A DNA stretch of 64,000 nt from a virus. Where the stretch lies: the IMG/VR virus record IMGVR_UViG_3300020463_002440, positions 32,001 through 96,000 of that record. The stretch is one strand, 5' to 3'. Position 1 is the first letter of the stretch. Each line of letters starts with the position of its first letter. The position numbers were made by a program, and so were the translations under genes. The notes beneath the pieces were generated by a model that saw only the letters and a list, made by a program, of their open reading frames with translations, was not told the DNA's origin and did no database searches. Below, piece by piece: positions 7,431-58,975 of this stretch.

Positions 7431-7750
7431 AAAGATTATTACAAAAAGGAACGATATTTATAGTAGACAGTTGGAGACTAGTAATGGATGCAAGGTATAA
7501 TCCATTAAGGTTTATACCAGATCCAAGTTTACAAATGTATTTTACATTAGTGCTATTTACTGTGTGGAGTGTATACTTCGGTTTCGTTGCGACATTTTAT
7601 ATGGGATGGTTAGGATATCAAACACTAACAAGTATTGCAGTACATATTGGAGTTATATTTCCAATTGCATTTACAAATGCGGTCTTTTTAGATGCTGAAA
7701 GAAACGGTTCAAAATGGTTACAAAATTGGAGAAAGAAAGATGAATTATGA
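7427..7750 (+). CDS. Hypothetical membrane protein (2 TM)
   Basis: YNPLRFIPDPSLQ followed by two hydrophobic helices. Confidence 0.7.
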   Translation: MKRLLQKGTIFIVDSWRLVMDARYNPLRFIPDPSLQMYFTLVLFTVWSVYFGFVATFYMGWLGYQTLTSIAVHIGVIFPIAFTNAVFLDAERNGSKWLQNWRKKDEL

Positions 7751-8129
7751 TTCTATAGAATTTGCTACAAGGGAAAACTTTATTAGGCAATACTTTAATG
7801 CATTTAGTAATAAAGACATTGATGCTTTAGAAAAAATGTTTGATAAAGATGTTACTCTAACAGATTGGGATATATCTGCTGAAGGTATTCTACCTGTCTG
7901 CAGAGCAAATGAACAAATCTTTAATTCTGTATTAAGGATTACTGCTATTCCTGAAGAGATTATTATTGACGGTAATAATGTTTGTGCATTGTTAACTATT
8001 GAAGTAATCACTGAAGGAACAGATCCAATAAACGATTTCGCAGAAAACCACGAAACACTTAAGGTCGTAGATTTAATAACGCTGACTAATGACTTTAAGA
8101 TTAAATCAATATCAGCGTTTAAACAATAA
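7740..8129 (+). CDS. SnoaL/NTF2-like protein
   Basis: IRQYFNAFSNKDIDAL..MF..DV.L.DW...KI..I.AF; start placed at MNYD. Confidence 0.75.
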   Translation: MNYDSIEFATRENFIRQYFNAFSNKDIDALEKMFDKDVTLTDWDISAEGILPVCRANEQIFNSVLRITAIPEEIIIDGNNVCALLTIEVITEGTDPINDFAENHETLKVVDLITLTNDFKIKSISAFKQ

Positions 8130-8646: not shown

Positions 8647-8672
8647 AAGGGAGTTGAAAGGCTCCCTTTTTT
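8647..8672 (+). terminator. Intrinsic terminator at the convergence point (possibly bidirectional)
   Basis: aagggagtt-gaaa-ggctccctt followed by a T-run. Confidence 0.75.
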
Positions 8673-9000
8673 ATTGTGTATGTTTTTTAGCAATTGCTAT
8701 TGCTTCTTCTACTGTATACGGACTACTATGTGCCAATGGTGCTTTCGTTTCGGTTATGTTTGGAAAAACATCTGATAGTCTTGCATTGATTTCAAAGAAT
8801 GGTATTTGCTCAGGTGGTAATTCATCTTCACTCCATATTGCTTCAACAGGACATTCAGGAACACAAAGACCACAATCAATACATTCATCAGGATGTATTA
8901 CTAAAAAATCAGGTCCTTCATAAAAGCAGTCAACAGGACATACTTCCACACATTTAGTATCTTTACATCCGACACAAGGACTACCTACTACAAAAGCCAT
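8671..9000 (-). CDS. fdxA: 7Fe ([3Fe-4S][4Fe-4S]) ferredoxin, FdxA/Azotobacter FdI type
   Basis: AFVV...[46 protein letters not shown]. Confidence 0.92.
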
Positions 9001-9006
9001 AACGAA

Positions 9007-9576
9007 TTATCTCTTAGGACATCTAATTTTTGCTTTTTTGGTTATCTTATAATTATTATATGCTACCAAGCCAGTCAAAGCAGCTGACATAAATTTCCAT
9101 TCATTCCACATTAGTTCACCATATTCTTCATCAGCATAAAACACGTTACTCACAGCCCAGATAACACTACCTTTTAAAGCAATCATCTCGCCAACTTCTG
9201 GGACTGGTGGTAATAAAGGATTTGCTTCTTCAATACATGAATACTTAACTCCTTCATAAGTCGTATATACATCTGCTATATGTGCTGTCCAAAATAAAAC
9301 ATTAACTAATAATTTATCCTTATTACTATGTTGCATAACAAATTCATTAAAACTTAATTCACCAAGTATTAACGTAGGTTCTTTATATTGAGGTAAGGTT
9401 TGAACTCTTCTAACTGTTTCGTCACTATAAGGAGCGTGATGTCCTAATCTGATAAGTTCTTTTGTTGCTTCAGAGAGTTCTGATAATAATGGGTCTTTTG
9501 GAACATATGCTTGTGCAGGAATTATAAAACATAATCCTAAAATAAGACTACTTAGTAGTCGCGATAAAAACACCAT
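9007..9576 (-). CDS. Secreted or membrane hypothetical protein
   Basis: N-terminal signal peptide (AQA), D.YTTY.G...C..EANPLL motif, C-terminal hydrophobic segments. Confidence 0.7.
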   Translation of the reverse strand: MVFLSRLLSSLILGLCFIIPAQAYVPKDPLLSELSEATKELIRLGHHAPYSDETVRRVQTLPQYKEPTLILGELSFNEFVMQHSNKDKLLVNVLFWTAHIADVYTTYEGVKYSCIEEANPLLPPVPEVGEMIALKGSVIWAVSNVFYADEEYGELMWNEWKFMSAALTGLVAYNNYKITKKAKIRCPKR

Positions 9577-11593
9577 TCCAATCCTTGGGAAGATCTTGCG
9601 TTTTCATGTATTCACAACGCTCAATCCACATTTTGTAATAACCGTCCATTTGTCCTTCAAAGCAATCCATGAGGTCATTACATATTTTAATCGCCTTATC
9701 AAAGTTTTGCTTTTGATAATTTGAATGCATTGCTTTGTGCATATCTACTGGTTTAATATATTTATCTTTATTTAGATCGAGAACAGTATATATTGTGATA
9801 CCTATTGTTTTTCCTTTCACAGCAAGATCATCAACCTTTAGAAAAAAGAATTCATTCGGATTACAACGATCTACAGTTTCTTCTCCGACTAATAATAGAC
9901 AACCATATTCTTTACACTTGGATTCTATTCTTGCGGCTGTTGATACGGCATCTCCAAGTATATCGTAGCTGTGACGAGATGTACTTCCCATTTCGCCAAC
10001 ATATCCAAGACCGCTATTAATACCTGCTCCCATACCAATCGGAGGTCGACCTTCTTTTGTAATTTTATTATTAAAGGATTCAACAGCTCTTAACATATTA
10101 ATACCAGTTTGTACTGCCGTCTTTGCATGATCTTTATCTTCCATAGGAGCATTATGTATATGCATACTTGCGTCTCCAATGTATTTGATAATCATTCCAT
10201 TTGCATCTAGAACAGGTTGTGTAATTGCATCCATATAACCATTCATTAATGTGGTCAGTCCTTTAACATCATCTCCGAAGCTTTCGCCCAGTGGAGTAAA
10301 TCCTCGAAGATCACTGAATACAATACTTACATCTTTTTTCATTCCGTCCTTGACAAGTGAGGGATTTTGTTGTAAAATAGTAACAACTTCTGGAGAACAA
10401 TACCCAGCGAATTGTTTCATGATTTCGCGCTTTTCTAAAAATGTTAAATAGTATTTGTTAAAGGAACTTTGGGCAAACACAACTAAGGAACTCAATGAAA
10501 TCAAAGATGCGTCAACGAAGATCAATGAACCGCTCCAAAGCCAGTAACTCACTCCGTATCCGGAAGAAACAAGACCAAGACTTATTAACACCCCAGGAGT
10601 TATGGGCAAGATATAGACCGCTCCAAGGATACCTAGACTCAATAAGACCAGAAGACCGAGCTCGAGTATTGGCTTCCAGTCGGGAATCTGTATTTCAACT
10701 CCTGAAAGAACGGTCTGAATTAGTTGGGCTTGAACTTCGTGGGGATACATTGCACCCGTTGGGGTTGAAACTGGATTAGAGACACCTTCAGCTGTTACTC
10801 CAAAGATAAGAACCTTTCCACTAGGTAAAGGATCAGTAATACTTATTTGTTCAAATTGATTCCAAAACGCAATTGGTAATTCAGCAAAACTATTTGTTGT
10901 GATAGGATCTTGACGACCCATACGAATCCATTCAACGCCGTTGGCGCCTACCTTCATTTGGTAACTGGGTTCTCCTGAATACACACGTAAGGTGTCAAGG
11001 GCGAGACTAGGGTATACGTTCCCGGCTGCTTCGACAACAAGTGGTGCTCTACGCACGACTCCGGTTGGTTCATCAGGTATAGCAACGGTAGCACCAACCC
11101 CGAAAGCGAAATTAGACAAATTGTCGATAGGATAAAGTAATCCAGGAAATTTGTAGAGCCATTTTTCATTTTGTTCTCCAAAGGTAGCGACACCTACAAA
11201 GGTACCTAAACCACCTGTTAATTGTTGTGATGGTGCTGAGGCCAACACCACTGCTTTTTGTTGCATTTCAAATGCAAGTAAATTGTCTTCTCCAAATCTA
11301 TCTTCTTCGGAGTATATTAAGTTAAGTACATAAAGGCTATCATTAGGGCCGTCACGTAAATAATCAGCAATGGAACCGCGAGGCCAAGGATACTGACCTT
11401 TGGCAGAGATTGCGGTTTCGTCGATGTTGACGAGGACCACGTCTTCAATAATTTCTTTTGTTTGATTTTGCTGTAACGCGTCATAATAAGCGTATTCTAT
11501 ACTTTGTATGAAACTAGGATTAACAATACTTAAAGTAGCAAAGCCTGCGATTGTAATAAGTACTGTCCACCACTGAGTTAGTGTTTTAAACAT
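9548..11593 (-). CDS. CHASE2-domain class III adenylate/guanylate cyclase
   Basis: N-terminal TM; CHASE2 motifs VLVNIDE..I...GQYPWPR, DE.TGVVRRAPL, YPSLAL, HAQ-like EVQAQ; 3 TMs; cyclase FSDLRGFT, KYIGDA, GEMGS..R.SYDILGDAV.TAARIE, VKGK. Confidence 0.93.
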   Translation of the reverse strand: MFKTLTQWWTVLITIAGFATLSIVNPSFIQSIEYAYYDALQQNQTKEIIEDVVLVNIDETAISAKGQYPWPRGSIADYLRDGPNDSLYVLNLIYSEEDRFGEDNLLAFEMQQKAVVLASAPSQQLTGGLGTFVGVATFGEQNEKWLYKFPGLLYPIDNLSNFAFGVGATVAIPDEPTGVVRRAPLVVEAAGNVYPSLALDTLRVYSGEPSYQMKVGANGVEWIRMGRQDPITTNSFAELPIAFWNQFEQISITDPLPSGKVLIFGVTAEGVSNPVSTPTGAMYPHEVQAQLIQTVLSGVEIQIPDWKPILELGLLVLLSLGILGAVYILPITPGVLISLGLVSSGYGVSYWLWSGSLIFVDASLISLSSLVVFAQSSFNKYYLTFLEKREIMKQFAGYCSPEVVTILQQNPSLVKDGMKKDVSIVFSDLRGFTPLGESFGDDVKGLTTLMNGYMDAITQPVLDANGMIIKYIGDASMHIHNAPMEDKDHAKTAVQTGINMLRAVESFNNKITKEGRPPIGMGAGINSGLGYVGEMGSTSRHSYDILGDAVSTAARIESKCKEYGCLLLVGEETVDRCNPNEFFFLKVDDLAVKGKTIGITIYTVLDLNKDKYIKPVDMHKAMHSNYQKQNFDKAIKICNDLMDCFEGQMDGYYKMWIERCEYMKTQDLPKDWNGVFIATTK

Positions 11594-12527
11594 GTTTACG
11601 ATATACTTTTACCGTATTAATTAATTGTCTTACGTGTTCAACTGGAGTTGTCTTATCAATTCCATGAGCCAAGTTAACAATATACGGCCTGTCTTTCATT
11701 TTATTGAGTACAGGTGTAATATCTTCTCCTTTAATTAATCGGCTTACTGAAATACCTCCTTGAAGTACTTCGCCATTAATTTGATCCACAGGTAAATCAT
11801 CGCTCATATTTGTTGCGTCAGGATTTACTTGTTCTATATAATCATTTATTTTTGTACCAACAAGTCTTGGAAAGGCAATAATACAAACATCAGGATAATG
11901 AGCTCTTATAACATCAACAATTTGCTGTGTTGGTTGAATTACATATTCATAAAAGTTTTCTTCTGATATGTCACAAGCATGACTATCAAATATTTGTATT
12001 GTATCACACCCTGCTTCAATTTGCATTGATAGGTGGTCAATAATATAAGGTACTAATTTTTGTACTACATCCAATCTTTGTTCTTCACACATATATTTAC
12101 ATATTGTGTATGGTGCTGCAGCAAATCCAATTAAAGATTTACTATCATCAAGCTCTTCTCTAACTTTTCGTATTGCTTCGTAAACTGGTTCGCACTTATC
12201 TTGGAATTCTTCTCGTGTTGTTTCCCAAAATGATTCGTTGTATGGACCTAGCTTTGGACCAGGAACATAATCAAGTTCTTGTCCTAAAGCGTAATTCACA
12301 ATTAATATATCTGAAAATATAATTGCACAATCCATATCAAACTCAAGAATAGGTTGCATCGTAATCTCAGCAGCCTTCCAAGGAGTAAGAGCCATATCTA
12401 AAAAGCCATCGGATTCTTTTTTCATTGCCATATATTCTGGCATATATCTTCCGGCTTGTCTCATTAACCAAACAGGATATAAATTAACTTCTTTATCCTG
12501 AATCGTTCTCTGTAATAATGTTTTCAT
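11586..12527 (-). CDS. hemE: Uroporphyrinogen decarboxylase
   Basis: PVWLMRQAGRYMPEY, AIIFSDIL, LIGFAAAPYT, QIEAG...IQIFDS, NLAHGI...TP. Confidence 0.92.
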   Translation of the reverse strand: MKTLLQRTIQDKEVNLYPVWLMRQAGRYMPEYMAMKKESDGFLDMALTPWKAAEITMQPILEFDMDCAIIFSDILIVNYALGQELDYVPGPKLGPYNESFWETTREEFQDKCEPVYEAIRKVREELDDSKSLIGFAAAPYTICKYMCEEQRLDVVQKLVPYIIDHLSMQIEAGCDTIQIFDSHACDISEENFYEYVIQPTQQIVDVIRAHYPDVCIIAFPRLVGTKINDYIEQVNPDATNMSDDLPVDQINGEVLQGGISVSRLIKGEDITPVLNKMKDRPYIVNLAHGIDKTTPVEHVRQLINTVKVYRKHV

Positions 12528-12532
12528 AATTT

Positions 12533-12844
12533 TTAACTTAATTTCTTTTGTATGTATTTCACCGCAGCATATATCGTTAAACCATATATTGCGAATATTG
12601 TTAAGGGAACTGCCATGTTGAGGATTACACTGATATCTAGGAATAGCAAATCTTTTGTAAAATCAATAATTGCTTCTGCGTCACCTTGTGCAGGTTCAAT
12701 ATTTCCTTCTATAGTATATTGCATATCTGCATCTGTAAGCATCAAGTGAAACTCATCTTCAGGAATACACATCATACCTTCAGGACAACCTTCTTCACCT
12801 GGGTATTTCGTTCCCACAGGATTTCCAAACATATCTAAATCCAT
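12533..12844 (-). CDS. Hypothetical membrane protein
   Basis: Acidic N-terminus with a CPEGMMC Cys pair; C-terminal TM. Confidence 0.65.
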   Translation of the reverse strand: MDLDMFGNPVGTKYPGEEGCPEGMMCIPEDEFHLMLTDADMQYTIEGNIEPAQGDAEAIIDFTKDLLFLDISVILNMAVPLTIFAIYGLTIYAAVKYIQKKLS

Positions 12845-12846
12845 AA

Positions 12847-13587
12847 TTATTCTTGAATCACCGATGTACTACAACCACCGACTGTCATACAATCAACTGA
12901 TATAGTATAAGACTGTGTACCGCTAGTACCAAATTGTATTAATGTTAAGTCTGTTCCATATAAACCATCAAGAGTTATATTTGCAGTGTGTGGTTGATTA
13001 GTTCCTTTCTGACGAACATACACATCGTTATAATCATTGTATATTGTTAAGTTTGTAGTTTTTGAAGCTTTGCCTTGTTGTTTTATTTGAACTTCGTTAT
13101 GGTCACCTGCTAAATGTAAATCAAAGTTATGTCCATCAGCTGCATTCCACTGATTGGTTTGTTGAACTGCTAATTGATTATAGTCACCGTACATAGTAAT
13201 ATCTATCTCATGACCACCACCTTCATCTCCATCGTCACTCCAATCTAAATTAGTATCAGAATTAAGAACGTCCCAAGAAACACCTTGTCCTAATTTCATT
13301 TGATTACCTGTACCACTTACTTCATCAAATCTTATTTTATTAGGAAGTGAAGTATTGCTTGTATTTACTTGTACTAAATACATATCTAAACTTGATGCTG
13401 TAATATATGAATTATTATCTAACATTAAAATTTGATTATCAAATCCAACTTGGTCAACACCTAATTGAAAAGTATCACCGCTCTGTTCAATATTGATTTC
13501 GTTATCTGCAAGTGCAACAGGTGCCAACATTAATACACCAAATAATATACCTGCTAAAAATATGTATGTTCTTTTTTCATTTGCCAT
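12847..13587 (-). CDS. Secreted curlin-like (CsgA/CsgB-like) repeat protein
   Basis: Signal peptide (ALA); repeated N-x-hydrophobic-x-Q-x-G units (NEINIEQSG, NQMKLGQG, NEVQIKQQG, NDVYVRQKG); in the csgFG operon. Confidence 0.7.
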   Translation of the reverse strand: MANEKRTYIFLAGILFGVLMLAPVALADNEINIEQSGDTFQLGVDQVGFDNQILMLDNNSYITASSLDMYLVQVNTSNTSLPNKIRFDEVSGTGNQMKLGQGVSWDVLNSDTNLDWSDDGDEGGGHEIDITMYGDYNQLAVQQTNQWNAADGHNFDLHLAGDHNEVQIKQQGKASKTTNLTIYNDYNDVYVRQKGTNQPHTANITLDGLYGTDLTLIQFGTSGTQSYTISVDCMTVGGCSTSVIQE

Positions 13588-13595
13588 AATATTAT

Positions 13596-14783
13596 TTATC
13601 CTCCTTGTCTAATCACAATTATTGAATCATTACCACCATTCAAATCTATAATCCCTTGATAACCATCTACTGATGTATCAACTCTAACTGATGCGTCTAC
13701 TGCAAAAGAAATATTTACTACTCCATTTACAGTTCTATAAAAAAATATTTTTCCGCTTTGTTCGTATATGTTATATTGACTGTCGTTATTAAATCCAAAA
13801 CTTGCTCCACGTAATTCAGCACCTAATGCTGTTCCGCTAATTGCACTATCATCAAGTGATGCGGTTGTTCTAACGAGAGCTTCGACTACATCTAATAAAT
13901 CTGTTAAAAAATCAACATCAAGATAATCAATATCAAGTTCTGAAAATTCTAATGCATCTTCATCGAGAGCATCATATTCTAATTCATTAAATTCTAAAAA
14001 ATCGAAATCAAGTAATCCTTGATCCATGTTTGCTTCGTCTTCGGCTGTTTCTTCAATTGCTTCTTTTACTTCAGGAGGCGGAGAAACAATAAACATATTA
14101 TCAATCATATTAGGTGTAATACCTTGCATTGTGATTTGTCTTGTAGGCGGGGTATCTAAACTGCTCACCATCGTTGCTGCATATGCTTCTGATAAAGTAA
14201 TTGTTCCACCATTGTTTGTTACATCGATAATACCTGAAGGATTACCGAACTCATCAGGTAAAAGTATTACGAGTGATCTACCTAACTCATCAATGGTTGC
14301 TGTAAAATCTGTTCCTCTTACAGCGATTTGTGCTGTTGGTGTTGATAGGTCAATATTTGCTTTATTAACCATTCCTAATCGACCAGATGCAAACCGCGCT
14401 GTGCCAACTGCCATGCGCATTGCCATTTTGGATTTACTTGGATCTGGATCGTAGTATATCTTGTCGATATATACTTTGGTGTGTTCTGTTAAAGATAACT
14501 GAGCTTCGTCTAAAAACTCAATCTTCATTCGGCCTTGGCCTGTTTCAGCCGTATCGTTTAATTCAATATTTGGAATAGAAGACGCGTCTAATATTTCGCC
14601 TTCTTCTCGAACAATTTGTCCGCTGCCAGTTTGTTCAATGATATCGCCAATTGGGCTCGCCATTGCTGTTCCGAAAAACAACATTGGCAAACCCAATAAT
14701 AGTCTAGCTGTCGTTAGCTGAATCTTTCTGATTAATTTGAATTGTAGCATTTTCACTATCAACATCCAAAGTAATAATTCCAT
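13596..14783 (-). CDS. FecR-domain exported protein with acidic C-terminal region
   Basis: D...TG.G...IEF.D...L.L.E.T, G.ARF.SG, TPTAQIAVRGTDF (FecR); true start probably near 14750. Confidence 0.85.
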   Translation of the reverse strand: MELLLWMLIVKMLQFKLIRKIQLTTARLLLGLPMLFFGTAMASPIGDIIEQTGSGQIVREEGEILDASSIPNIELNDTAETGQGRMKIEFLDEAQLSLTEHTKVYIDKIYYDPDPSKSKMAMRMAVGTARFASGRLGMVNKANIDLSTPTAQIAVRGTDFTATIDELGRSLVILLPDEFGNPSGIIDVTNNGGTITLSEAYAATMVSSLDTPPTRQITMQGITPNMIDNMFIVSPPPEVKEAIEETAEDEANMDQGLLDFDFLEFNELEYDALDEDALEFSELDIDYLDVDFLTDLLDVVEALVRTTASLDDSAISGTALGAELRGASFGFNNDSQYNIYEQSGKIFFYRTVNGVVNISFAVDASVRVDTSVDGYQGIIDLNGGNDSIIVIRQGG

Positions 14784-15435
14784 TACAAGTAGAAATGCCT
14801 TGTGGGCATGTTCCGCTCATTTGGTTAATATCAATATCTGCAGATGATCCGTTAAGAACTAAATTAATTTCATGTTCTCCACCATCTTTCTGTAAGGTAT
14901 TAATATTGTTTGATCCACCTGTGATGTCCATATTCCAAACTGCATCATCAACATCTATGTCAATATCAAAGATATTACTATCTCCAATTACAGTTAAGTC
15001 AAGATCTAATCTTTCTGCACTTGCGTTATACCCTTGGTCAAAGTCCATAGTATTTGAATCACCAGTAATATCAACATCATATGTTGAAGTATCTGCTGAA
15101 CCTACATATCCTACGTCCCAATCCCAAACGTTGCTGTCACCTGTCCAAAGTAAATTGGCAGTTGAGCTGTCGCCAACAAATTTTCCGAATAGTAAATTTT
15201 CGTTTCCTATTTGGTCAATATTGAAAGTTAAAGTTGTACCTGTGATAGGCATAGCACTTGAACCTGATGCAAAATTGTCTAAACCAATTTTGTTACCATA
15301 TCCATATTGGTCAATGTAAAGTGTTAAAGTATCACCTTGTTGGTCAATATTAATTTCATTATCGTCGGTAGCTTGCGCATTCGCATTGAAAGAAAAAACA
15401 CATAATAAAGATAGGCCTAATATTTTACGTATCAT
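14704..15435 (-). CDS. Secreted curlin-like (CsgA/CsgB-like) repeat protein
   Basis: Signal peptide (ANA); repeats IDQ.G..N and I.GDSN...D.D; paralogous N-terminus DNEINI.Q.GDT shared with 12847-13587. Confidence 0.72.
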   Translation of the reverse strand: MIRKILGLSLLCVFSFNANAQATDDNEINIDQQGDTLTLYIDQYGYGNKIGLDNFASGSSAMPITGTTLTFNIDQIGNENLLFGKFVGDSSTANLLWTGDSNVWDWDVGYVGSADTSTYDVDITGDSNTMDFDQGYNASAERLDLDLTVIGDSNIFDIDIDVDDAVWNMDITGGSNNINTLQKDGGEHEINLVLNGSSADIDINQMSGTCPQGISTCNGIITLDVDSENATIQINQKDSANDS

Positions 15436-16376
15436 TATTCTTCCTCTTTTAAGTTAATCGACCAGAAGCCACGTTCGTCGCCCTGGTACACCATTTCTAG
15501 TACGGCAGCTTCAATTGCTGTTCGTACTGCGTATGTCACTGATTCATTATTACCAATTCCGTCCTCGTATTCAATCAACTGAGTTCCCTGCTCGATAAAG
15601 CGGAAGACGTCTCCTCCTGAGCCATAGCTCAGTATTGATTTTTTCGTCTGAACATTCAATAATATTTCACCTGTTAAAACCGATACAGCTCGCACTGAAA
15701 CTGTTACGACATCTTGTCTATATTGTCGACTAAAACCTATGCCTAACGTTCTTGCGCCTCGCCCTCCTGTCTTTACATTACTATCATAACCAATGATGCC
15801 GCCCTCAATTATCATTCCCGCGAATAATAGAGGACCAACACCTTTTGTTTCTTCGCCCAGTTTCTTTGCCGCTTCATCACGACCTGTACGAATGATTTGA
15901 CGTTCTCTTACAAGAGCGTCAATTCCTTGTCTTTCTACTACTCTGAACCAGGTACCATTTCCTGCTGTCTTCAGAGCATCTATTAATAATTCTGTTCCAC
16001 CTTGTGTTACCGCCGTGGAAAAACTTTGTCCTGTGACAGAATCTTTTCTCTGTCCTGTCTTATCTAAAAATCCATATACTGCTACCACAGGTTTACTTGC
16101 TGCAGGCGGTAAATTTAATAACTCAATGTAAGATGGTAATCTAACAACTTGAGGCTGTTCGATACATATCTGTTTACTCTCAATATATTTACGAGTACCT
16201 GTATTAATCTTATCTATTAATAAACCGTCACCGTTTTCATCTTTTACTTTGCCAAACCCTTGCGAGTAATATCCTTGCCCGTATTCGCAATTTGCAGGTC
16301 CTTCAGACCATTGTGGCATTTGTGCACAGCTTGTTAAAAACGCAAGGCTAACCGCCGTCAGGATTCGAGTCACCAT
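15435..16376 (-). CDS. csgG: Curli secretion channel CsgG-like lipoprotein
   Basis: Lipobox LTSC; VAVY.F.DKTGQRK, FSTAVTQG, WF.VVERQG...L..ERQIIR, EGGIIGYDSNVKTGG.GAR.LGIG...QYR.D.VTV, NE.V..AV..AIEAAV; start at MVTR behind GGAGG. Confidence 0.95.
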   Translation of the reverse strand: MVTRILTAVSLAFLTSCAQMPQWSEGPANCEYGQGYYSQGFGKVKDENGDGLLIDKINTGTRKYIESKQICIEQPQVVRLPSYIELLNLPPAASKPVVAVYGFLDKTGQRKDSVTGQSFSTAVTQGGTELLIDALKTAGNGTWFRVVERQGIDALVRERQIIRTGRDEAAKKLGEETKGVGPLLFAGMIIEGGIIGYDSNVKTGGRGARTLGIGFSRQYRQDVVTVSVRAVSVLTGEILLNVQTKKSILSYGSGGDVFRFIEQGTQLIEYEDGIGNNESVTYAVRTAIEAAVLEMVYQGDERGFWSINLKEEE

Positions 16377-16860
16377 CCGTTCCTCCACCAAAATTTCCAC
16401 TACCTATTGGTATCTCAATAATAGTAGTAGTCCCATTTTCGTCAATAATTGTCATTTTAATATATTCAGTTCCATCTGTGTTAGTTATAACTTCATATGT
16501 TACTGTTGATCCTTCTAATACGAAAGATCCAAACCTTACAGGATTATCGTTAGAGAACATATTATCTACTAACTGTTTTGCTAACTGAGCATAAATCCTT
16601 GACTCAAGGTTACGAATAAACTTTGATAATGTTGTATTATCAGCTTCTCGTTGTGCAGCTCTTTCAGCTGCTTCAAGAGCATCCTTTATTTGCTCCTTTC
16701 TTGAAAACTCTTGGTTCTCAATTGTTAAATAATGCGCTCCTGCGCCTACACCGCTGAACGATGGATTTTTAAATTTATGAACAATTGGCTCTGCACAGAC
16801 TTGTGCAGAAAAATAAACTCCAATTACAAGTATTCCTAAAAGTGTTCCATTAATCTTCAT
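16348..16860 (-). CDS. csgF: Curli assembly component CsgF-like
   Basis: Signal peptide, then HKFKNPSFSG; F..NLESRI.AQL..QL; TT.IEIP; adjacent to csgG. Confidence 0.88.
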   Translation of the reverse strand: MKINGTLLGILVIGVYFSAQVCAEPIVHKFKNPSFSGVGAGAHYLTIENQEFSRKEQIKDALEAAERAAQREADNTTLSKFIRNLESRIYAQLAKQLVDNMFSNDNPVRFGSFVLEGSTVTYEVITNTDGTEYIKMTIIDENGTTTIIEIPIGSGNFGGGTDGDSNPDGG

Positions 16861-17119
16861 TGTCTTTCTCACCTTTTTTCTTCAATTCTTCTATTTCTTT
16901 ATATTTCAGAACAACATCAACTTTTTGTTGTAAACGTATTAAGTCTTGATCTAACATCCTCATTCTGTCAATTAACTTTATAAGTGCCATGTGTTGCTTA
17001 TCAATTTCAGGTTGCAGTTTAGTATTCACAAACTGCCACACAAAATATACAAAATAACCAAGTCCTACTACCATAACAGCAGGAAAGCCATACTCATTAA
17101 CTAAGCTCGCAATATCCAT
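16850..17119 (-). CDS. Small membrane protein (TM plus coiled coil, YvrJ/BhlA-like)
   Basis: LVNEYGFP.V...LGYFVYFVW then coiled coil. Confidence 0.65.
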   Translation of the reverse strand: MDIASLVNEYGFPAVMVVGLGYFVYFVWQFVNTKLQPEIDKQHMALIKLIDRMRMLDQDLIRLQQKVDVVLKYKEIEELKKKGEKDNED

Positions 17120-17123
17120 TATA

Positions 17124-17420
17124 TCAATCTCTTCTTACGTCTACTTTTCCATCTTCTATAAAATTTTCTGCTCGGGCTACTCTTTCAATATCTGGATTTA
17201 ATCCTAATGCACTACTCACAAGAAGATCAATCTTGATCATTTCATTAGACATCATAGATGCTCTATTTTCCAATGATTCTGCGAACATTGTTAACGTGCC
17301 AATACTATCAACGATTCCTTCAAAGATTTGTTTTATAATTACAAAAATAAAGAATCCCATTGTAAGGGCTCCGGCAATAGGCAATCCTACGTCAGATATA
17401 AGTTGAAAAATTTCTTCCAT
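17124..17420 (-). CDS. Small membrane protein, paralogue of 16850-17119
   Basis: LISDVGLPIA...MGFFIFVII then coiled coil. Confidence 0.65.
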   Translation of the reverse strand: MEEIFQLISDVGLPIAGALTMGFFIFVIIKQIFEGIVDSIGTLTMFAESLENRASMMSNEMIKIDLLVSSALGLNPDIERVARAENFIEDGKVDVRRD

Positions 17421-17457
17421 AGTAATCCTAGTATTGAAAGGTAAAACCTCTCAATGT

Positions 17458-17465
17458 TATTTATA
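17458..17465 (-). promoter_or_regulatory. T4-type late promoter heading the curli/cyclase operon
   Basis: TATAAATA on the - strand, 37 nt upstream of the 17420 start. Confidence 0.75.
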
Positions 17466-17649
17466 CATTTTAGATACTATATAGGTAACAAATTGTCTTC
17501 TAATAGGCTCCATATTCTCCTTCTAGTCCTCTTGTAATGTATGGCAATACAATCCAATTAGTAAAAATAACCACTTTTAGAGGACATTTATTTTGTTATA
17601 TACATGATGATTAATATAACAAAAAGTTCTAAAAAGATGAAAAAAGTTG

Positions 17650-17678
17650 TTGACATTCTTTATGAAATAGATTAGAAT
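17650..17678 (+). promoter_or_regulatory. Early sigma70-type promoter
   Basis: TTGACA(17650)-17-TAGAAT(17673). Confidence 0.85.
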
Positions 17679-17710
17679 ATACATTCAACAATTGAAAAAG
17701 GAATCAAATA

Positions 17711-17944
17711 ATGTCTACTGAATTGAGAACTGTTCCAACAACAGATATTCAACAAACGCGTTTCTTTGGTGGAAAAGACCGAGGAACATGTATTCAATTA
17801 ACGCCACCATGGCAATCACAAGGTCACATTCAGCTAACTCGTAAACAGGCTGCTGAGTTGGCTGCAGAATTAACGCTGTTCGCAAATGGTGAAGAAGTTG
17901 CCGAGCATCTACTACCTCTATTCCAAGTTGTCAAAAATAAATGA
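17711..17944 (+). CDS. Hypothetical early protein
   Basis: AAGGA SD; TRFFGG..RG.C.Q motif. Confidence 0.7.
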   Translation: MSTELRTVPTTDIQQTRFFGGKDRGTCIQLTPPWQSQGHIQLTRKQAAELAAELTLFANGEEVAEHLLPLFQVVKNK

Positions 17945-17953
17945 AAAAAACTA

Positions 17954-17982
17954 TTGACATCATAAAGAAACTATGGTATAAT
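17954..17982 (+). promoter_or_regulatory. Early sigma70-type promoter
   Basis: TTGACA(17954)-17-TATAAT(17977). Confidence 0.9.
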
Positions 17983-18016
17983 GGTTGTATAAATTAAATT
18001 AATCAGGAAATAAATT

Positions 18017-18733: not shown

Positions 18734-18762
18734 TTGACATTTTCTTTTAACTTTGATATAAT
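18734..18762 (+). promoter_or_regulatory. Early sigma70-type promoter
   Basis: TTGACA(18734)-17-TATAAT(18757). Confidence 0.9.
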
Positions 18763-18769
18763 ATACATT

Positions 18770-19327
18770 ATGAATATTTTTATTTTAGACAACGATCCAA
18801 TAAAAGCAGCTCAATCTCAGTGCGACAAGCATGTCGTAAAAATGATTATTGAGTCTGCTCAGATGTTATCGACCGTTCATCGTATGTTGGACGGCAAAAT
18901 GGAACGCAGGCCTTCAAAGTCTGGTTCTATGTTAAAGTATTATTACCTTGAAGACAGTCGAGAAGATACACTCTACAAAGCCTGTCATCATAATCATCCG
19001 TCCACAGTTTGGACGAGAGAATCCAAAGCCAACTATGATTGGCACTACAAACACTTTGTTGCGTTATGTGATGAATACACTTATCGTTATGGTAAGATCC
19101 ATATGACAGATACTAAATTAAGACAAGCATTAAAATATTTTCCAACTAATATACCTGATATAGGACCAACTAAATTTAAGTTAGCAATGAGTTCTAATCC
19201 TGAGTGTATATTTGAGGATGCAGTTAAATCGTATCGTGCTTTTTATCATACCAAAGAAGAAAGATTTAAATTGGTGTGGAGTAAAAGACCGATTCCTGAC
19301 TGGTGGCAAGGTCGGAGATTAGCTTAG
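18770..19327 (+). CDS. Pyrimidine-dimer DNA glycosylase/DenV-family protein
   Basis: MNIFILD..P..AAQ..CDKHVVKMI.ESAQMLST, H.NHPST.W.RES..NY.W, L..EYTYRYGK.H. Confidence 0.75.
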   Translation: MNIFILDNDPIKAAQSQCDKHVVKMIIESAQMLSTVHRMLDGKMERRPSKSGSMLKYYYLEDSREDTLYKACHHNHPSTVWTRESKANYDWHYKHFVALCDEYTYRYGKIHMTDTKLRQALKYFPTNIPDIGPTKFKLAMSSNPECIFEDAVKSYRAFYHTKEERFKLVWSKRPIPDWWQGRRLA

Positions 19328-20936: not shown

Positions 20937-21779
20937 ATGATTCCATTAATTGGAACAAGAAAATCAAAACTTGCTCTTGCATATACTAACAAAGCAATAA
21001 AACGTTTAGATATTTCACTTACAACTGTCCTCATTGATTCAGAAGCAGATCTTAAACCTGATGTTACTATTGAAGAATTAGGTAATAAAGGAGTCTTTTC
21101 TAAAGAGGCTGAAACCTCTCTAATTAATAATCATATTGATATTGCATGTCATGCATACAAAGATCTTACAAGAGATAACGATCACCTTCTAGAAATATCC
21201 TGCGTACTACCAAGAGCTGACTTTAGAGATTGTTTAATTGGTAATAATATAAATCCAAGAACAATAGGTACAAGCTCTCCAAGAAGATTATTTCAATTAC
21301 AAGAATTATATCCAAATGCACAGATAGTTCCTATTCGTGGTAACATAGATACTCGAATACAAAAACAAGAGAACGGTGAATATGATGCAATTGTTTTAGC
21401 AAAAGCTGGTCTTGATTCTTTAAACCTTACTCACAAAGCAAGTAGAATATTTGGAACTGCAGATATGTTGCCTGCACCAGGACAAGGAGTTATTGCTTTA
21501 CAGACAAGAATACCAAATAATGATAGAGATCGCGATATTACAGGAATGTTATGGGCAAGAAATCATATTGACACTTGGTATACAGTAATGGCTGAAAAAG
21601 CAATGCTTAAAGAAATAAATGGAGACTGCCATACTCCAATTGGTGTATTATCATATGTTGAAAATAATACATTACACATGGTTGCGAAACACTTTGAAAC
21701 AGATAAGCTAAGTTTGAATAAAGGTCCTATTGAAGAATATAATGAAATAGGTTCGCAGCTCGGCAAATCTTTAATATGA
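20937..21779 (+). CDS. hemC: Porphobilinogen deaminase (hydroxymethylbilane synthase)
   Basis: IGTRKSKLA, G.KGVFSKE, H..KD (catalytic Asp), GTSSPRR, IRGNIDTR, DAIVLA.AGL, PAPGQG, GDCHTPIG (cofactor Cys). Confidence 0.92.
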   Translation: MIPLIGTRKSKLALAYTNKAIKRLDISLTTVLIDSEADLKPDVTIEELGNKGVFSKEAETSLINNHIDIACHAYKDLTRDNDHLLEISCVLPRADFRDCLIGNNINPRTIGTSSPRRLFQLQELYPNAQIVPIRGNIDTRIQKQENGEYDAIVLAKAGLDSLNLTHKASRIFGTADMLPAPGQGVIALQTRIPNNDRDRDITGMLWARNHIDTWYTVMAEKAMLKEINGDCHTPIGVLSYVENNTLHMVAKHFETDKLSLNKGPIEEYNEIGSQLGKSLI

Positions 21780-22611: not shown

Positions 22612-23922
22612 TTAGAATAAGTTAGAGATTCTTACTTTTCTGTAATACTTGTTGGTATCCTGAGTCAATGCACCAGAACCTTGTGAGGCTCCTTCAGCAA
22701 AAGGATTAGCAACCATACCGTAACGAGTTTTAAAACCAATTTTCGGTTGGAAACTATTTTCACCAACGGCACGAACCATTTGCAATGGTACGTAAGGACA
22801 ATAGAATAGTCCAGCGTCAAATGCGCTTGAACCTTTATATCCAACTACTAAGTAGTTTCCGCCTGCGAAAGGATCAACATATACTCTGAATCTTCCGTTA
22901 AGAACACCAGCAAAAGTATTGCCTGTGTCATCAACTTCTAGATTGTTAGAGTTAAGAGCAGGAGTATAGTCGAGAACGCCAGCCATTTGAAGTGCTGAAG
23001 CAACATCAGAAGAACAAATAACAACGTTACCTTTTCCTCTTCTTGTATCTTTAGCGATAGCATTAGCTTCTTGCTCGATTTGGAACATTAAGCCTTTGAA
23101 CTTCTCAACTGACCATCTTCCGTTGGAATCAACGTCAAGGTCGAATACACCAGCAGATGCAGTACCAGCGGCACCTTCAACAGCAGTTGTATAAATTGTT
23201 CTAACAACTTCTCTATTGATCTCTGTTAGGATTTCAGTTTGAAGAATGTTAGCAAGTTCTGTTTCAGCGTCTAAGCCGTGAACAGCCTTAAGATCCTGAG
23301 CAAGCTCAGTTGTATACTCAGCCTTTAGGGCACGAGTCTTAGCAGATACAGTAACCTTCTCGATTGAGAATGCCATTTCTGCATAGTTAGTACCATTACC
23401 ATCACCTAAAGCTTCCGCTTCAGTTGTTCCCATACCAGTACCAGTTGTAATCAACGTAGTATTAGCATTAGGAAGTGTGTTAGCATGAGTACCTGCACCA
23501 GCGAAGTCTGTATCAGCTTCGTTGTACATTGCTTCTGCACCACCTTGTGAGCTGTATCTTGAACGCATTGCGAAGATAAGTCCTGTAGGACCTGTCATCG
23601 GCTGAACACCACAGATGTCATATGCGATTAAGTTAGGTACAGCACGTCTTACCAATGAGATAAGAATTGGGTCGTAACCTGCAACTGGACCAGTTGCTGT
23701 AGCTCCACCACTAAATCCACCTGTTGAGGCGTCGTTAGCATGTGTCTCTGACAACAATGAAGTCATGTTAGCAGATAAGTCACCAGACTCAGTTAGTGCT
23801 TTTTCAGTGTTCTCAAGAATAGTAGCCGTAACTGCTTTTCTATGATTATCACTGATTGGTGAAAAAGATTCGTGCTCTAAGATAGGCTCCCACTTTTCCA
23901 CTAGTCTTTGATAGTTATCCAT
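22612..23922 (-). CDS. gp23: Major capsid protein (T4 gp23)
   Basis: KWEPIL, LVRRA.PNLIAYDICGVQPMTGPTGLIFAMR, FSIEKVTV.AKTRALKAEY, FYCPYVPL, FQPKIGFKTRYG. Confidence 0.98.
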   Translation of the reverse strand: MDNYQRLVEKWEPILEHESFSPISDNHRKAVTATILENTEKALTESGDLSANMTSLLSETHANDASTGGFSGGATATGPVAGYDPILISLVRRAVPNLIAYDICGVQPMTGPTGLIFAMRSRYSSQGGAEAMYNEADTDFAGAGTHANTLPNANTTLITTGTGMGTTEAEALGDGNGTNYAEMAFSIEKVTVSAKTRALKAEYTTELAQDLKAVHGLDAETELANILQTEILTEINREVVRTIYTTAVEGAAGTASAGVFDLDVDSNGRWSVEKFKGLMFQIEQEANAIAKDTRRGKGNVVICSSDVASALQMAGVLDYTPALNSNNLEVDDTGNTFAGVLNGRFRVYVDPFAGGNYLVVGYKGSSAFDAGLFYCPYVPLQMVRAVGENSFQPKIGFKTRYGMVANPFAEGASQGSGALTQDTNKYYRKVRISNLF

Positions 23923-43185: not shown

Positions 43186-43620
43186 TTAATCTTCAGTACA
43201 GCCAGCATAATAATCTAATGACTTAAGATGAGTATACGCTTGTACTAAATCTGAATCAGTGGAATCCATGTCTAACATGAATATACACTTTTGGTCAAGA
43301 CCTGGTGTACCAATTGATAGTTCAGCTTCAACCTCTGTTGCGTTTTCGCCTGCTATACCAATAGGATTTAAACCATCAGTCCTTGCTTGTTTTGTTGCCC
43401 ACATGGTTACCCATATACGACAAACATATCCCTCTGCCCAATACATATCAGACCCTGCTTCTCTAACACCATCGTTAGTCAATCCAGACGGTAATGAAGT
43501 ATCGGGTGGTAAAGGAATTTCTTGTGTTCTTTTATGAACCTTTATATCTGTAATAACGTGATAAGCGTCAGGCACGGTCACACCAGTACCTTGTATCTCG
43601 TAATCTTTAATTAGTGCCAT
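43186..43620 (-). CDS. Tail-fibre-associated protein
   Basis: MAL.K....G..V.DAY.VI...QAY.HLK; directly downstream of the giant fibre gene. Confidence 0.6.
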   Translation of the reverse strand: MALIKDYEIQGTGVTVPDAYHVITDIKVHKRTQEIPLPPDTSLPSGLTNDGVREAGSDMYWAEGYVCRIWVTMWATKQARTDGLNPIGIAGENATEVEAELSIGTPGLDQKCIFMLDMDSTDSDLVQAYTHLKSLDYYAGCTED

Positions 43621-46600
43621 TGCTACTATTCTCCATTATTGATTGCATATTATATACCATTTCTTTTAGAATGTCAATATCTTTCTGCATATTATTTATT
43701 GTTTCTTCTTTACTCTTGATGATAGCGTTTTGGTCCTTAATACCTTCAACAAGTAAACCAACCATCTTAGGATAATCAAGTCCGTATTCATCATCTTCTT
43801 CATCGTAAGTTACAACCTCTGGAACAATAGGTTCAACTTCTTGGGCAATAAGACCCATTTGAGTACTTAGGAATGAATTATCACGTTCATCTTCCCATTC
43901 AGCAAGCTTACGAGTATATGTTACACCGCGTAATTGTAATACTTTATCAAGAGCATTTTCGATAGTTTGTATATTTTCTTTACGACGTCTATCTGAATAA
44001 GCAACTACGTTACCGGTAGCCCATAGTGAACCATTAACTTGCATTCTATAACCGCTTCGTGTTGCCGACGAACCTACACCCAGACAGTTATTACCACGGC
44101 TATGATAGTATACCCAACGACCGCCACCTTGTAGATAGATACCACCACTACCGTTGCTGTCGAACATTAGGTGCGGATCCCAAGTAGGTTGTGGCCATGA
44201 TAAACCGTACCATCCACTTCTGCTACCGTATATTGCCCATGAGCCGTAACTTGTTTGGTTATTCGGGAAGAAGTGAGCACCGTTATATCCATCATAGATA
44301 CCAACACCGCCGCCACCAACTTGTAACCAAGTATTTGCATAAGTATAACTTGAACCACCGTTGATTTGGAATCTAACAGTGTTTGAGTTATAATCATTCA
44401 TGAACCTCATGCCTTGATAGCTTGGGTTCGCTCCGAAGTCAAGACCTACGTGATAGTTAATTCTTAATGCGGGATATGGATAACTCCAACTACCTGATGT
44501 CTGGAATAATTCATAAGGATAAGAACTAATTGCTCTTCCTGAGTTACTGCCTGTACCATTAAAGTCAAATACGTATGCACGTACTTGGTTCATATTTGAT
44601 GTTGATGCTGGATCTGTATAATAACTTGTACTATTAGAATCGTAATAACGACCTGCATACATTGATCCACCATTCGTACTATTCTCATCTAATACTGGAA
44701 TTGTTCTCCAAGATCTCCAACCACTCCATGAACTTCTAAACCTAAGGTTAGTAATTGGTCCACCAACCATCTGCCAACCATAACCTGATGTATTACTATT
44801 TCTATAGTGATAGGCCTGAACTCCAACCCAGTGAGATGTACCTGACGGTTGATTAGGTGGATTACTCCAAGAATCAATAAATCCTGAACCCCAAGTTGAA
44901 ACGACGTTCATATCTTGACGTCCCCAACCCATTGAACCGGTCCAATAATCTGTATTACTTGTTATACGAGGTCTTGCTCTATAATACTCACCGCTGTTTC
45001 TTGTATGACCCGGCTGACTAATGTAAGCCATTGTTCTATTACTTACACCTTCAAACCTTGTGCTATGAGCAGAAGCACCGTTGAAGTAATAACCTGTATT
45101 GTTTCTATCGTAATAGATTGGTGCTCTTACATCAGTTCCAACATAAAGATTTCTATAAATTTCAGTATAAGAACTGCCTGGGTTAATACGAACTGCCCAA
45201 CCACCTGAACTATTTAATAAACCGAAACCACTACTGTCGTAATAAAGGTATCCACGACGACCTGTACTTGAGCCCTGTGAACTATTATAACGATCATATA
45301 TAATTAATCCACCTGATGAACTACCGCCGTCTAAGTGCCAATAACTTGTACCTGCAGCATAGAAGTGTCTTCCGTATGGAGTACTATATAAACCACGACC
45401 TCCATTATCGTTTCTGAACCAACCATCGTTGTAAATTTCTCCACGAATATCTAATACATTCATTACTGAAGTAGAAGCAAAGTCTCCATAATAGGCAGTA
45501 TTATTTGAATCATAATAACGGCCTGCGTACATTGAACCACCATTACCGCTGTTTTCATCCAACATTGGTATTGTACGCCAAGCACGGAAACCAGACCAAG
45601 AACTTCTGAATCTAAGGTTAGTGATCGGTCCACCAACCATCTGCCAACCATATCTTGCTGAACCGTTAGAATAGTGATATGCTTGTACACCAACCCAATG
45701 CGAAGTACCGCTTGGTTGATTACCTGGGTTTGACCAAGTATCCAAGAATCCTGAACCCCAGTTAGCAACTGTGTTAAAGTCAATTCTACCCCAACCTTTA
45801 GCTCCTGTCCAATAGTTGGTATCACTTGTTATATTTGGTCGTCTACCGTAATTACTTATTGCTCCATTTCTTGTATGACCCTGCAATCCAATCATTGCTT
45901 GACCACGAGCAGTTAAACCTTGCCAGTTTGAATCACCATTTGGATTCATGTAATAACCGGTGTCGTTTAAGTCATAGAATATTGGAGCACGGAATGATTC
46001 ACCTGAATAAACATATCCATAATAGAATCTATGATATGAACCGTTATAATAGAAGTTCCAACTACGTGTATTATCATGCATACCCCAGTTGTTGCCTTCG
46101 GTTGACATTAGAGTCCATCGAGTACCAATACCATAACCTGACCAACCGTTTCGACCAGTATTATATGTTGAGATGTTTCCGTATGGATTACCTTCACCAC
46201 CTGCTGAACGAATACCATATCCGTAATCTTGCCAATAAACACCAGTACTACCTTGAGGCCTAAACCAATTATTAGCATATACTGCGCTGAGTTGAGAACT
46301 GGCGGCTGGATCTACATAATAGCCGGTGTTATTCCAATCGTAGAATATTGGCGAACGAATATCTGAAGCAAATACCGCTCTACTTGATATAGCAGCTCTA
46401 AACGAACCATTGTTAATAATTAACATACCGTGGTCGTTTAATTGATTTGCACCACCTATCGAACCTGCGTTTGGATGCGACCAACCAATACCATACATAT
46501 TTGCAGTCGAAGCACCATTCGAGCTCGGTCTATAAGCAGCACCCATTGCGAATACTAATTGTAATCTTGTAGAAGTATATGTACCTGTTACACCGATACC

Positions 46601-55450: not shown

Positions 55451-55504
55451 TCGGTTCACTCTCCCCAGATAGGCGATTTAAATTATATTGTACTGTTTTA
55501 TTTA

Positions 55505-58936: not shown

Positions 58937-58975
58937 ATATATGTCCTTCTATATCATATACCTATTTAGGCAAAT

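Follow-up and report, generated by a model that had tools for sequence, protein, structure and literature searches.

A curli-like secretion module with a FecR-domain protein and a CHASE2 cyclase, probably for late surface fibres and cAMP signalling, in an uncultured marine T4-like phage

Which role can a curli-like secretion operon play in a marine phage, when the same operon also encodes a FecR-domain protein and a CHASE2 cyclase? The question is raised by a stretch of viral DNA corresponding to positions 32,001–96,000 of the IMG/VR record IMGVR_UViG_3300020463_002440 (64,000 nucleotides (nt), G+C ~36%; this whole stretch is hereafter called the window), whose parent record measures 156 kb and is estimated to be 73% complete. 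Here, 12 minus-strand open reading frames (ORFs) occupy positions 8671–17420. We read this locus as a type VIII (curli-like) secretion module of the pelagiphage kind, belonging to an uncultured marine T4-like phage from the HTVC008M/Melnitz group, and think it probable that the module would make surface fibres late in infection and would signal through cyclic AMP (cAMP). The elements on which this reading stands are the following (sizes in amino acids, aa; pI, isoelectric point):

17458..17465, minus strand: T4-type late promoter motif TATAAATA, 37 nt 5′ of the first ATG, in single copy in the cassette
17124..17420, minus strand: sm1, a membrane protein of 98 aa with a single pass, helical or coiled-coil towards its C-terminus (phrog_18771, 4e-23)
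16850..17119, minus strand: sm2, an 89-aa paralogue of sm1 (phrog_18771, 3.7e-26)
16348..16872, minus strand: csgF homologue with a signal peptide, probable ATG at 16860 (Pfam CsgF, 9.8e-15, 55.3 bits against a cut-off of 25.8)
15435..16400, minus strand: csgG homologue, outer-membrane lipoprotein channel, probable ATG at 16376 (Pfam CsgG, 1.5e-53, 181.7 bits against a cut-off of 20.8)
14704..15435, minus strand: curlin-like A, a secreted acidic repeat protein (pI 4.05) with a C-terminal Cys pair (family-level Curlin_rpt matches; AlphaFold2 beta-solenoid)
13596..14783, minus strand: FecR-domain periplasmic protein, likely start at 14750 giving 384 aa (Pfam FecR, 9e-09, 36.1 bits against a cut-off of 24)
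12847..13587, minus strand: curlin-like B, paralogous to A but more variable, which starts with a signal peptide and has a C-terminal Cys pair (hhalign to A; Curlin_rpt in its homologues)
9548..11593, minus strand: CHASE2 sensor domain, membrane segments and class III nucleotide cyclase (Pfam CHASE2, 8.4e-29; Guanylate_cyc, 8.2e-18)

All 12 ORFs are co-oriented, with junctions that either overlap or leave gaps of no more than 8 nt, and in the order of transcription they encode sm1, sm2, CsgF, CsgG, curlin-like A, the FecR-domain protein, curlin-like B, a 103-aa protein, HemE, the CHASE2 cyclase, a DUF5658-like protein and an FdxA-type ferredoxin. The ORF positions, the Pfam matches and the motif at 17458–17465 confirmed the original prediction, made from the letters of the window alone, of 12 co-oriented, abutting or overlapping genes behind a T4 late promoter. 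By megablast, the entire region had no match in the phage collection, and a search at the protein level was required; the CsgG relatives include those of the Pelagibacter phage HTVC008M (51% identity) and of four Melnitz phages of OM43 (48%). Synteny was evaluated in the best 80 of the 376 IMG/VR contigs encoding a CsgG relative, plus two isolates (HTVC008M and Melnitz), and the core order sm1, sm2, csgF, csgG, curlin A, FecR, curlin B, cyclase held in the 80 loci and in both isolates wherever the contig extends. Thus, as had been predicted, the pore, the plausible amyloid substrates and the FecR and CHASE2 pair occur together, the latter co-occurring with csgFG in related phages, and all of them are co-inherited in every related locus that is long enough.

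The module itself is largely known, from phages of SAR11 and OM43. The GenBank entries of HTVC008M and Melnitz carry annotations for CsgF, CsgG, a curlin-associated protein and an adenylate/guanylate cyclase that follow the order seen here, with two small hypothetical genes preceding csgF, and the Melnitz record also annotates a FecR-domain protein and a second curlin-repeat protein. The csgFG cluster of pelagimyophages was described by Zaragoza-Solas et al. (2020; PMC7029224), who proposed a ‘sibling capture’, and a lysis-timing pore was proposed for Melnitz by Buchholz et al. (2022; PMC9004378). Subsequently, Wittmers et al. (2022; PMC9599517) reported CsgF, CsgG, CsgA/B, FecR, a second CsgA/B and a cyclase in podo- and myo-pelagiphages, found that the module genes co-vary across ocean viromes and are represented among transcripts, and put forward aggregation, superinfection exclusion and import as possible functions. 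That study supersedes the statement that csgF/csgG phages are usually described as lacking curlins, and it anticipates the aggregation and superinfection-exclusion idea of the original prediction. In the published accounts FecR is taken as an iron regulator and CHASE2 is unmentioned, as is the promoter in Wittmers et al. Our additions concern the cargo status of HemE and of the ferredoxin, the lack of a kinase domain in sm1/sm2, the fold and paralogy of curlin A, the residues of the cyclase, the bacterial FecR-CHASE2 neighbourhood and the conserved late motif.

When is the operon expressed? Counted over the whole window, the late motif shows no enrichment (12 copies against 9.1 expected); its placement is more telling, as the minus strand holds 11 of the 12 copies, and for 8 of those 11 a co-oriented ORF of ≥150 aa begins 21–65 nt further downstream, in most cases within the structural region. 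Moreover, in 40 of 58 distinct related loci the motif is found no more than 150 nt upstream of the homologous first small gene, and several of the others are one base off. From this placement and conservation we infer, with good support, that the operon would be expressed late. On the opposite strand, two near-consensus sigma-70-type promoters at 17650–17678 (11/12 matches) and 17954–17982 (12/12, extended TG) point away from the late operon, toward small plus-strand genes, which suggests that 17466–17990 may be a divergent early/late control region.

The pore genes are csgG and csgF. CsgG matches the structures 4uv3 and 6l7a of E. coli CsgG at 1.6e-47, with its SFSTAV placed opposite NFSTAV in the alignment, and a lipobox L-T-S-C can be read from its sequence. 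The csgF gene overlaps csgG and encodes a protein whose N-terminal F-x-N-P-S-F-S-G motif is invariant across 21 phage homologues; no sequence match with the solved CsgF chains was obtained among PDB sequences, either with the single CsgF protein or with the CsgF profile.

What would such a pore export? The two candidate substrates, curlin-like A and B, are both strongly acidic (pI ~4.1) and 243–246 aa long. Curlin A carries a signal peptide with a conserved Ala-x-Ala type cleavage site and G-x-x-N motifs every 22–26 residues, with a mean column identity of 69% in 41 sequences; in curlin B, which also has a conserved Ala-x-Ala type cleavage site, the mean column identity is 40%. Their alignments, compared by hhalign, gave a probability of 99.2 and E = 1.1e-19 over 194 columns, which makes them paralogues. 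At E ≤ 0.01, Curlin_rpt was matched by 38 of 41 homologues of curlin A (best 1e-05) and by 17 of 39 of curlin B; the NCBIfam CsgA and CsgB matches were far under their cut-offs. The AlphaFold2 model of curlin A is an all-beta solenoid or repeat structure, with a predicted local distance difference test score (pLDDT) of 80.8 and a predicted template modelling score of 0.77. A curlin A profile found no match among PDB sequences; by VIA-align of the model, a SufD-type beta-helix ranked first (Z 16.9, root-mean-square deviation (rmsd) 3.3 Å), tied with Pontibacter CsgA 8c50 (Z 16.8, the highest identity, 19%), and other beta-helices followed. Taken together, curlin A is modelled as a beta-solenoid compatible with a curlin, which falls short of proof of an amyloid. 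As a separate observation, many curlin B homologues (e.g., L004 12826–13635) show a charged N-terminal extension of 30–50 residues before the hydrophobic segment, from which the copy in the window is free; these extended homologues may be membrane-anchored instead of cleaved, or their start codons may have been placed too far upstream.

Another explanation would be that curlin-like A and B are virion parts, such as fibres or decoration, made late with the structural proteins and not exported by CsgG. The beta-helix model of curlin A also resembles phage tailspikes and tail fibres (Z 10–12), curlin B has a weak Gp34_2nd match (0.0081), and, in addition to the late promoter, the structural genes begin only ~5 kb from the operon, with the T4-type major capsid protein (gp23) at 22612–23922 in the window. 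However, the Gp34 match is far under its cut-off, the curlin genes always lie beside csgFG, and both proteins have the signal peptides and conserved cleavage sites described above; we regard virion parts as very improbable. As side observations on the structural region, three very large consecutive ORFs of 3950, 1143 and 1357 aa occupy 43607–63049 on the minus strand.

The FecR-domain protein lies between the two exported candidates. It has a signal peptide and a FecR beta-sandwich, shows a stretch, IDNMFIV, that is invariant in the alignment, and includes a very acidic linker as well as a beta domain at the C-terminus; its 384-aa form is on record, and it has >6000 close relatives in metagenomes. 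By Foldseek, the FecR part matched the PupR periplasmic signalling domain (6ovk, 1.3e-05) and an anti-sigma factor of Parabacteroides (4m0h, 8.4e-06). Upstream of the FecR domain there is a signal peptide only, with no cytoplasmic anti-sigma domain and no membrane anchor, and the protein is probably soluble in the periplasm. Its reading as a ferric-citrate regulator was rejected, as the partner genes were not found in the phage record: neither an extracytoplasmic function (ECF) sigma factor (Sigma70_r2) nor an STN domain was matched in the 156 kb, ~73% complete.

In the cyclase, CHASE2 spans residues 18–319 and Guanylate_cyc 419–596, and PDB adenylate cyclases match it down to 1.1e-21. It retains both metal-binding Asp, the ATP-specifying Lys and Asp, the Arg and the KGK motif, and is likely to be active, as far as its residues indicate. 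We do not favour its reading as PycC of the Pycsar anti-phage defence: the PycC match, at 1.5e-16, is weaker than the best adenylate-cyclase match, and the record yields no cyclic nucleotide-binding protein, as detailed below.

To which bacterial genes are the FecR-domain protein and the cyclase related by neighbourhood? It has been reported that FecR-domain genes neighbour CHASE2 sensors in bacteria (PMC9239204, PMC5192318): in Campylobacterota a FecR-domain outer-membrane protein is clustered with a CHASE2 cyclase, and in Burkholderia a LysM-FecR protein is found with a CHASE2 histidine kinase. In Sinorhizobium meliloti, NsrA is required for CyaK signalling (PMC7529298, PMC13001267). The FecR profile had 13118 relatives at E ≤ 0.001 among 50%-identity representatives, and it matched in 91 of the 401 genomes of our bacterial sample, drawn from the class of one metagenome-assembled genome (MAG) labelled Rhodobacterales and taken as Alphaproteobacteria. 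A CHASE2 cyclase was found within 10 kb in 6 of the 20 best alphaproteobacterial FecR loci; csgG, csgF, curlin-like and sm genes were found within 10 kb in none of the 20. Conversely, the seven closest alphaproteobacterial csgG loci keep the csgF-csgG pair, with CsgG 43–50% identical to the phage CsgG, and no FecR, CHASE2 cyclase or sm1/sm2 genes lie within 10 kb of them. FecR and the cyclase are thus outside the bacterial curli operons here, in agreement with Wittmers et al. (2022). Of the partnership in bacteria that had been predicted, with NsrA and CyaK as its example, the neighbourhood stood, in the 6 loci and in the cited reports, and so did the requirement of NsrA for CyaK; the FecR domain of NsrA was unconfirmed.

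The profile search of binned genome contigs with the FecR profile also returned seven loci (L083–L089), all with the complete phage-type cassette including sm1/sm2, in MAGs labelled as Sphingobacteriales, Rhodobacterales, Synechococcus, Planctomycetaceae, Saprospirales and ‘bacterium’. Since the full phage-type cassette sits in MAGs of five unrelated bacterial groups, these are probably phage contigs mis-binned into bacterial MAGs, and they are uninformative on bacterial origin.

These data can be arranged in a possible sequence of events. Late in infection, a CsgG-CsgF channel would be installed in the outer membrane of the host and would export the two acidic curlin-like subunits, which would polymerise into surface fibres. 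The soluble periplasmic FecR-domain protein would contact the periplasmic CHASE2 domain of the inner-membrane cyclase, by analogy to NsrA, which acts genetically for CyaK, and this contact would couple the state of the envelope or of secretion to cAMP synthesis. HemE, the ferredoxin and the 103-aa protein would be cargo landed in or beside the operon. More specifically, the FecR-domain protein and the CHASE2 cyclase could form a trans-envelope sensor built by the phage, which would convert curlin export, fibre assembly or cell contact into cAMP and so tune host physiology or lysis time; this proposal is tentative and rather doubtful. It is supported by the neighbourhood of FecR and CHASE2 cyclase that recurs in Alphaproteobacteria away from csgG, such a sensor pair being one that the phage lineage would have attached to a secretion system.

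Several observations weigh against fibres and cAMP signalling. The Curlin_rpt match of curlin A of the window itself (8.6e-04, 19.6 bits) is just under the cut-off of 20.7, and a Pfam scan of curlin B of the window gives no curlin match. When the curlin A model was compared with the PDB by Foldseek, no match reached E ≤ 0.001, and the fit to CsgA 8c50 is poor (rmsd 9.0 Å), the SufD-type beta-helix fitting better; the predicted fold as beta-solenoids has the support of the AlphaFold2 model for curlin A, and none from Foldseek. The model of the FecR-domain protein has low confidence overall (pLDDT 57). In the cyclase, the transition-state Asn is replaced by Ser (GDAVSTAARIES), and this is conserved across the clade of the window; the other phage cyclase clade keeps the Asn, but has Ser at the second specificity position. 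A cyclic nucleotide-binding protein that could act as the cAMP receptor was not found in the 156-kb record, ~73% complete. Finally, no clumping was seen of cells infected with Melnitz (PMC9004378).

The absence of clumping in Melnitz cultures would suit a different function, a lysis-timing device, in which CsgG-CsgF is a gated outer-membrane pore or a secretin-like lysis part (Buchholz et al. 2022), while sm1/sm2 would be holin-like, the cyclase would act as the timer and the curlins would be plugs or accessories. The late promoter motif agrees with it, and so does the nature of sm1 and sm2. Alignment shows that these two are paralogous, each with one membrane segment and a helical tail, and the closest named Atlas clusters are YvrJ (0.87) and Holin_BhlA/UviB (0.86); nevertheless, scores below the 0.9 level are leads only. 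Moreover, CsgG, being in the outer membrane, cannot depolarise the inner membrane; the two secreted curlin paralogues are present in every locus long enough, with the 69% identity of curlin A, and fit a real exported product; and transfer of the module between phage families occurs en bloc, although each family is already equipped with lysis genes (PMC9599517). On this balance, a lysis-timing device seems unlikely to us. As for the published label of sm1/sm2 as ‘histidine kinase’, we rejected it: at 89–98 aa, HisKA and HATPase were not found among 29 sm1/sm2 homologues even at E ≤ 1, and the PDB profile search with the family returned generic coiled coils only.

Returning to the secretion module, are all the genes of the operon parts of it? 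The elements that lie outside the conserved core are the following:

12533..12844, minus strand: acidic protein of 103 aa whose C-terminal segment is hydrophobic; an accessory gene, which only part of the related loci carry between curlin B and the cyclase
11586..12527, minus strand: hemE, uroporphyrinogen decarboxylase of 313 aa (Pfam URO-D, 7.7e-66, 222.9 bits)
9007..9576, minus strand: 189-aa protein with a signal peptide (Pfam DUF5658, 2.4e-04, under the cut-off)
8671..9000, minus strand: FdxA-type ferredoxin at the operon end (NCBIfam FdxA_Protbact, 1.2e-38, 131.6 bits against a cut-off of 135; Pfam Fer4 families)
8647..8668, no strand assigned: G+C-rich hairpin directly after the ferredoxin stop, between convergent transcription units

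The 103-aa protein had no family match in Pfam, PHROG-type or NCBIfam scans. HemE scored 239.8 bits against TIGR01464 (338 positions), under the cut-off of 302.95, and 11 of the 80 related loci have its gene, in every case within the interval from curlin B (or the 103-aa gene) to the cyclase; the ferredoxin gene was found in none of the 80. Therefore HemE and the ferredoxin are cargo and not core parts, contrary to the initial view of them as parts of the system. Of the loci that reach far enough, a large share have a DUF5658-like homologue after the cyclase. Gene order suggests an insertion site between curlin B and the cyclase, where cargo genes collect. It was also observed that two of the 11 hemE loci contain an extra ~1.4 kb between hemE and the cyclase (L003 14857–16289; L027 4873–6305).

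The iron- or heme-linked character of HemE and of the ferredoxin, which share the operon here, could speak for an import or iron-sensing device, in which an ungated CsgG admits nutrients or cofactors and FecR is a ferric-citrate-type regulator; both ideas are found in Wittmers et al. (2022). The module has indeed no CsgE gate, and a FecR domain is present. Against this, the FecR-domain protein consists of a signal peptide and a periplasmic FecR domain only, with no anti-sigma domain, ECF sigma factor or STN-domain receptor in the phage record, the two iron- or heme-linked genes have the scarce distribution just described, and two conserved curlin-like genes would be left unexplained. We consider such a device quite improbable.

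Some further features were observed around the operon. A porphobilinogen deaminase gene, hemC, lies at 20937–21779 on the plus strand (Pfam, 4.2e-56 and 5.6e-10), opposite to hemE and a few kb from it; with both genes present, the phage has at least two steps of the heme pathway, in separate transcription units. The operon is flanked by a possible pyrimidine-dimer glycosylase (18734–19327, plus strand; Pyr_excise, 1.1e-04, just at the cut-off) and by a SnoaL-like protein (7692–8129, plus strand; 5.7e-08). The hairpin at 8647–8668 was called as a terminator of the plus strand; the minus strand shows the hairpin without a T-run.

If the reading as a fibre and cAMP module is true, a pore, fibre subunits and a cAMP-producing sensor supplied by a phage in late infection could alter aggregation and the formation of particles in the surface ocean, as well as superinfection and the exchange of genes there. 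The distribution of the module is wide, as at least 376 IMG/VR contigs encode a CsgG relative, to which the metagenomic relatives of the FecR-domain protein can be added. The window offers a clean, complete example driven by a late promoter, with little that is new in kind, and shows that cargo genes can be taken up between curlin B and the cyclase.

How does this module compare with known systems? The closest is the type VIII secretion system module of pelagiphages (Wittmers et al. 2022, mSystems; HTVC008M, KC465899; Melnitz, MZ577097), which has the same gene order and the same position near structural genes, with 27–51% protein identity between the module of the window and those of HTVC008M and Melnitz. 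In comparison, the phage of the window and a subset of its relatives add hemE and the 103-aa gene between curlin B and the cyclase; next to the cyclase comes the DUF5658-like gene, an arrangement common to many relatives, and last the ferredoxin, which no related locus has. Bacterial curli, especially the alphaproteobacterial type that lacks CsgE and CsgD, likewise have csgF and csgG paired in this order, and repeat proteins for secretion that match Curlin_rpt, a match which in the phages is seen at the level of the protein family; the phage module, by contrast, is without CsgE, CsgC and CsgD, and its curlin-like proteins are longer (243–246 aa), very acidic and end with a C-terminal Cys pair.

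The FecR-domain protein shares the periplasmic domain fold of the FecR/PupR anti-sigma regulators (6ovk, 4m0h), but differs from them in having neither the cytoplasmic anti-sigma domain nor the anchor, and in the lack of an ECF sigma factor or STN transducer in the record. The bacterial FecR and CHASE2 pairs (Campylobacterota, Burkholderia and the 6 of 20 alphaproteobacterial loci) likewise place a FecR-domain envelope protein beside a CHASE2 sensor with cytoplasmic output, and NsrA with CyaK/CyaD1/CyaD2 of Sinorhizobium meliloti is listed here as a comparable pair, its FecR domain being unconfirmed. The bacterial FecR partners are larger, with 545–1857 aa compared to the 384 aa of the phage protein and, unlike the bacterial pairs, that of the phage is embedded among two curlin genes. 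As FecR is found near a CHASE2 cyclase but away from csgG in the sampled Alphaproteobacteria, the phage module has the look of two bacterial modules put together, one of csgFG with curlins and the other of FecR with the CHASE2 cyclase.

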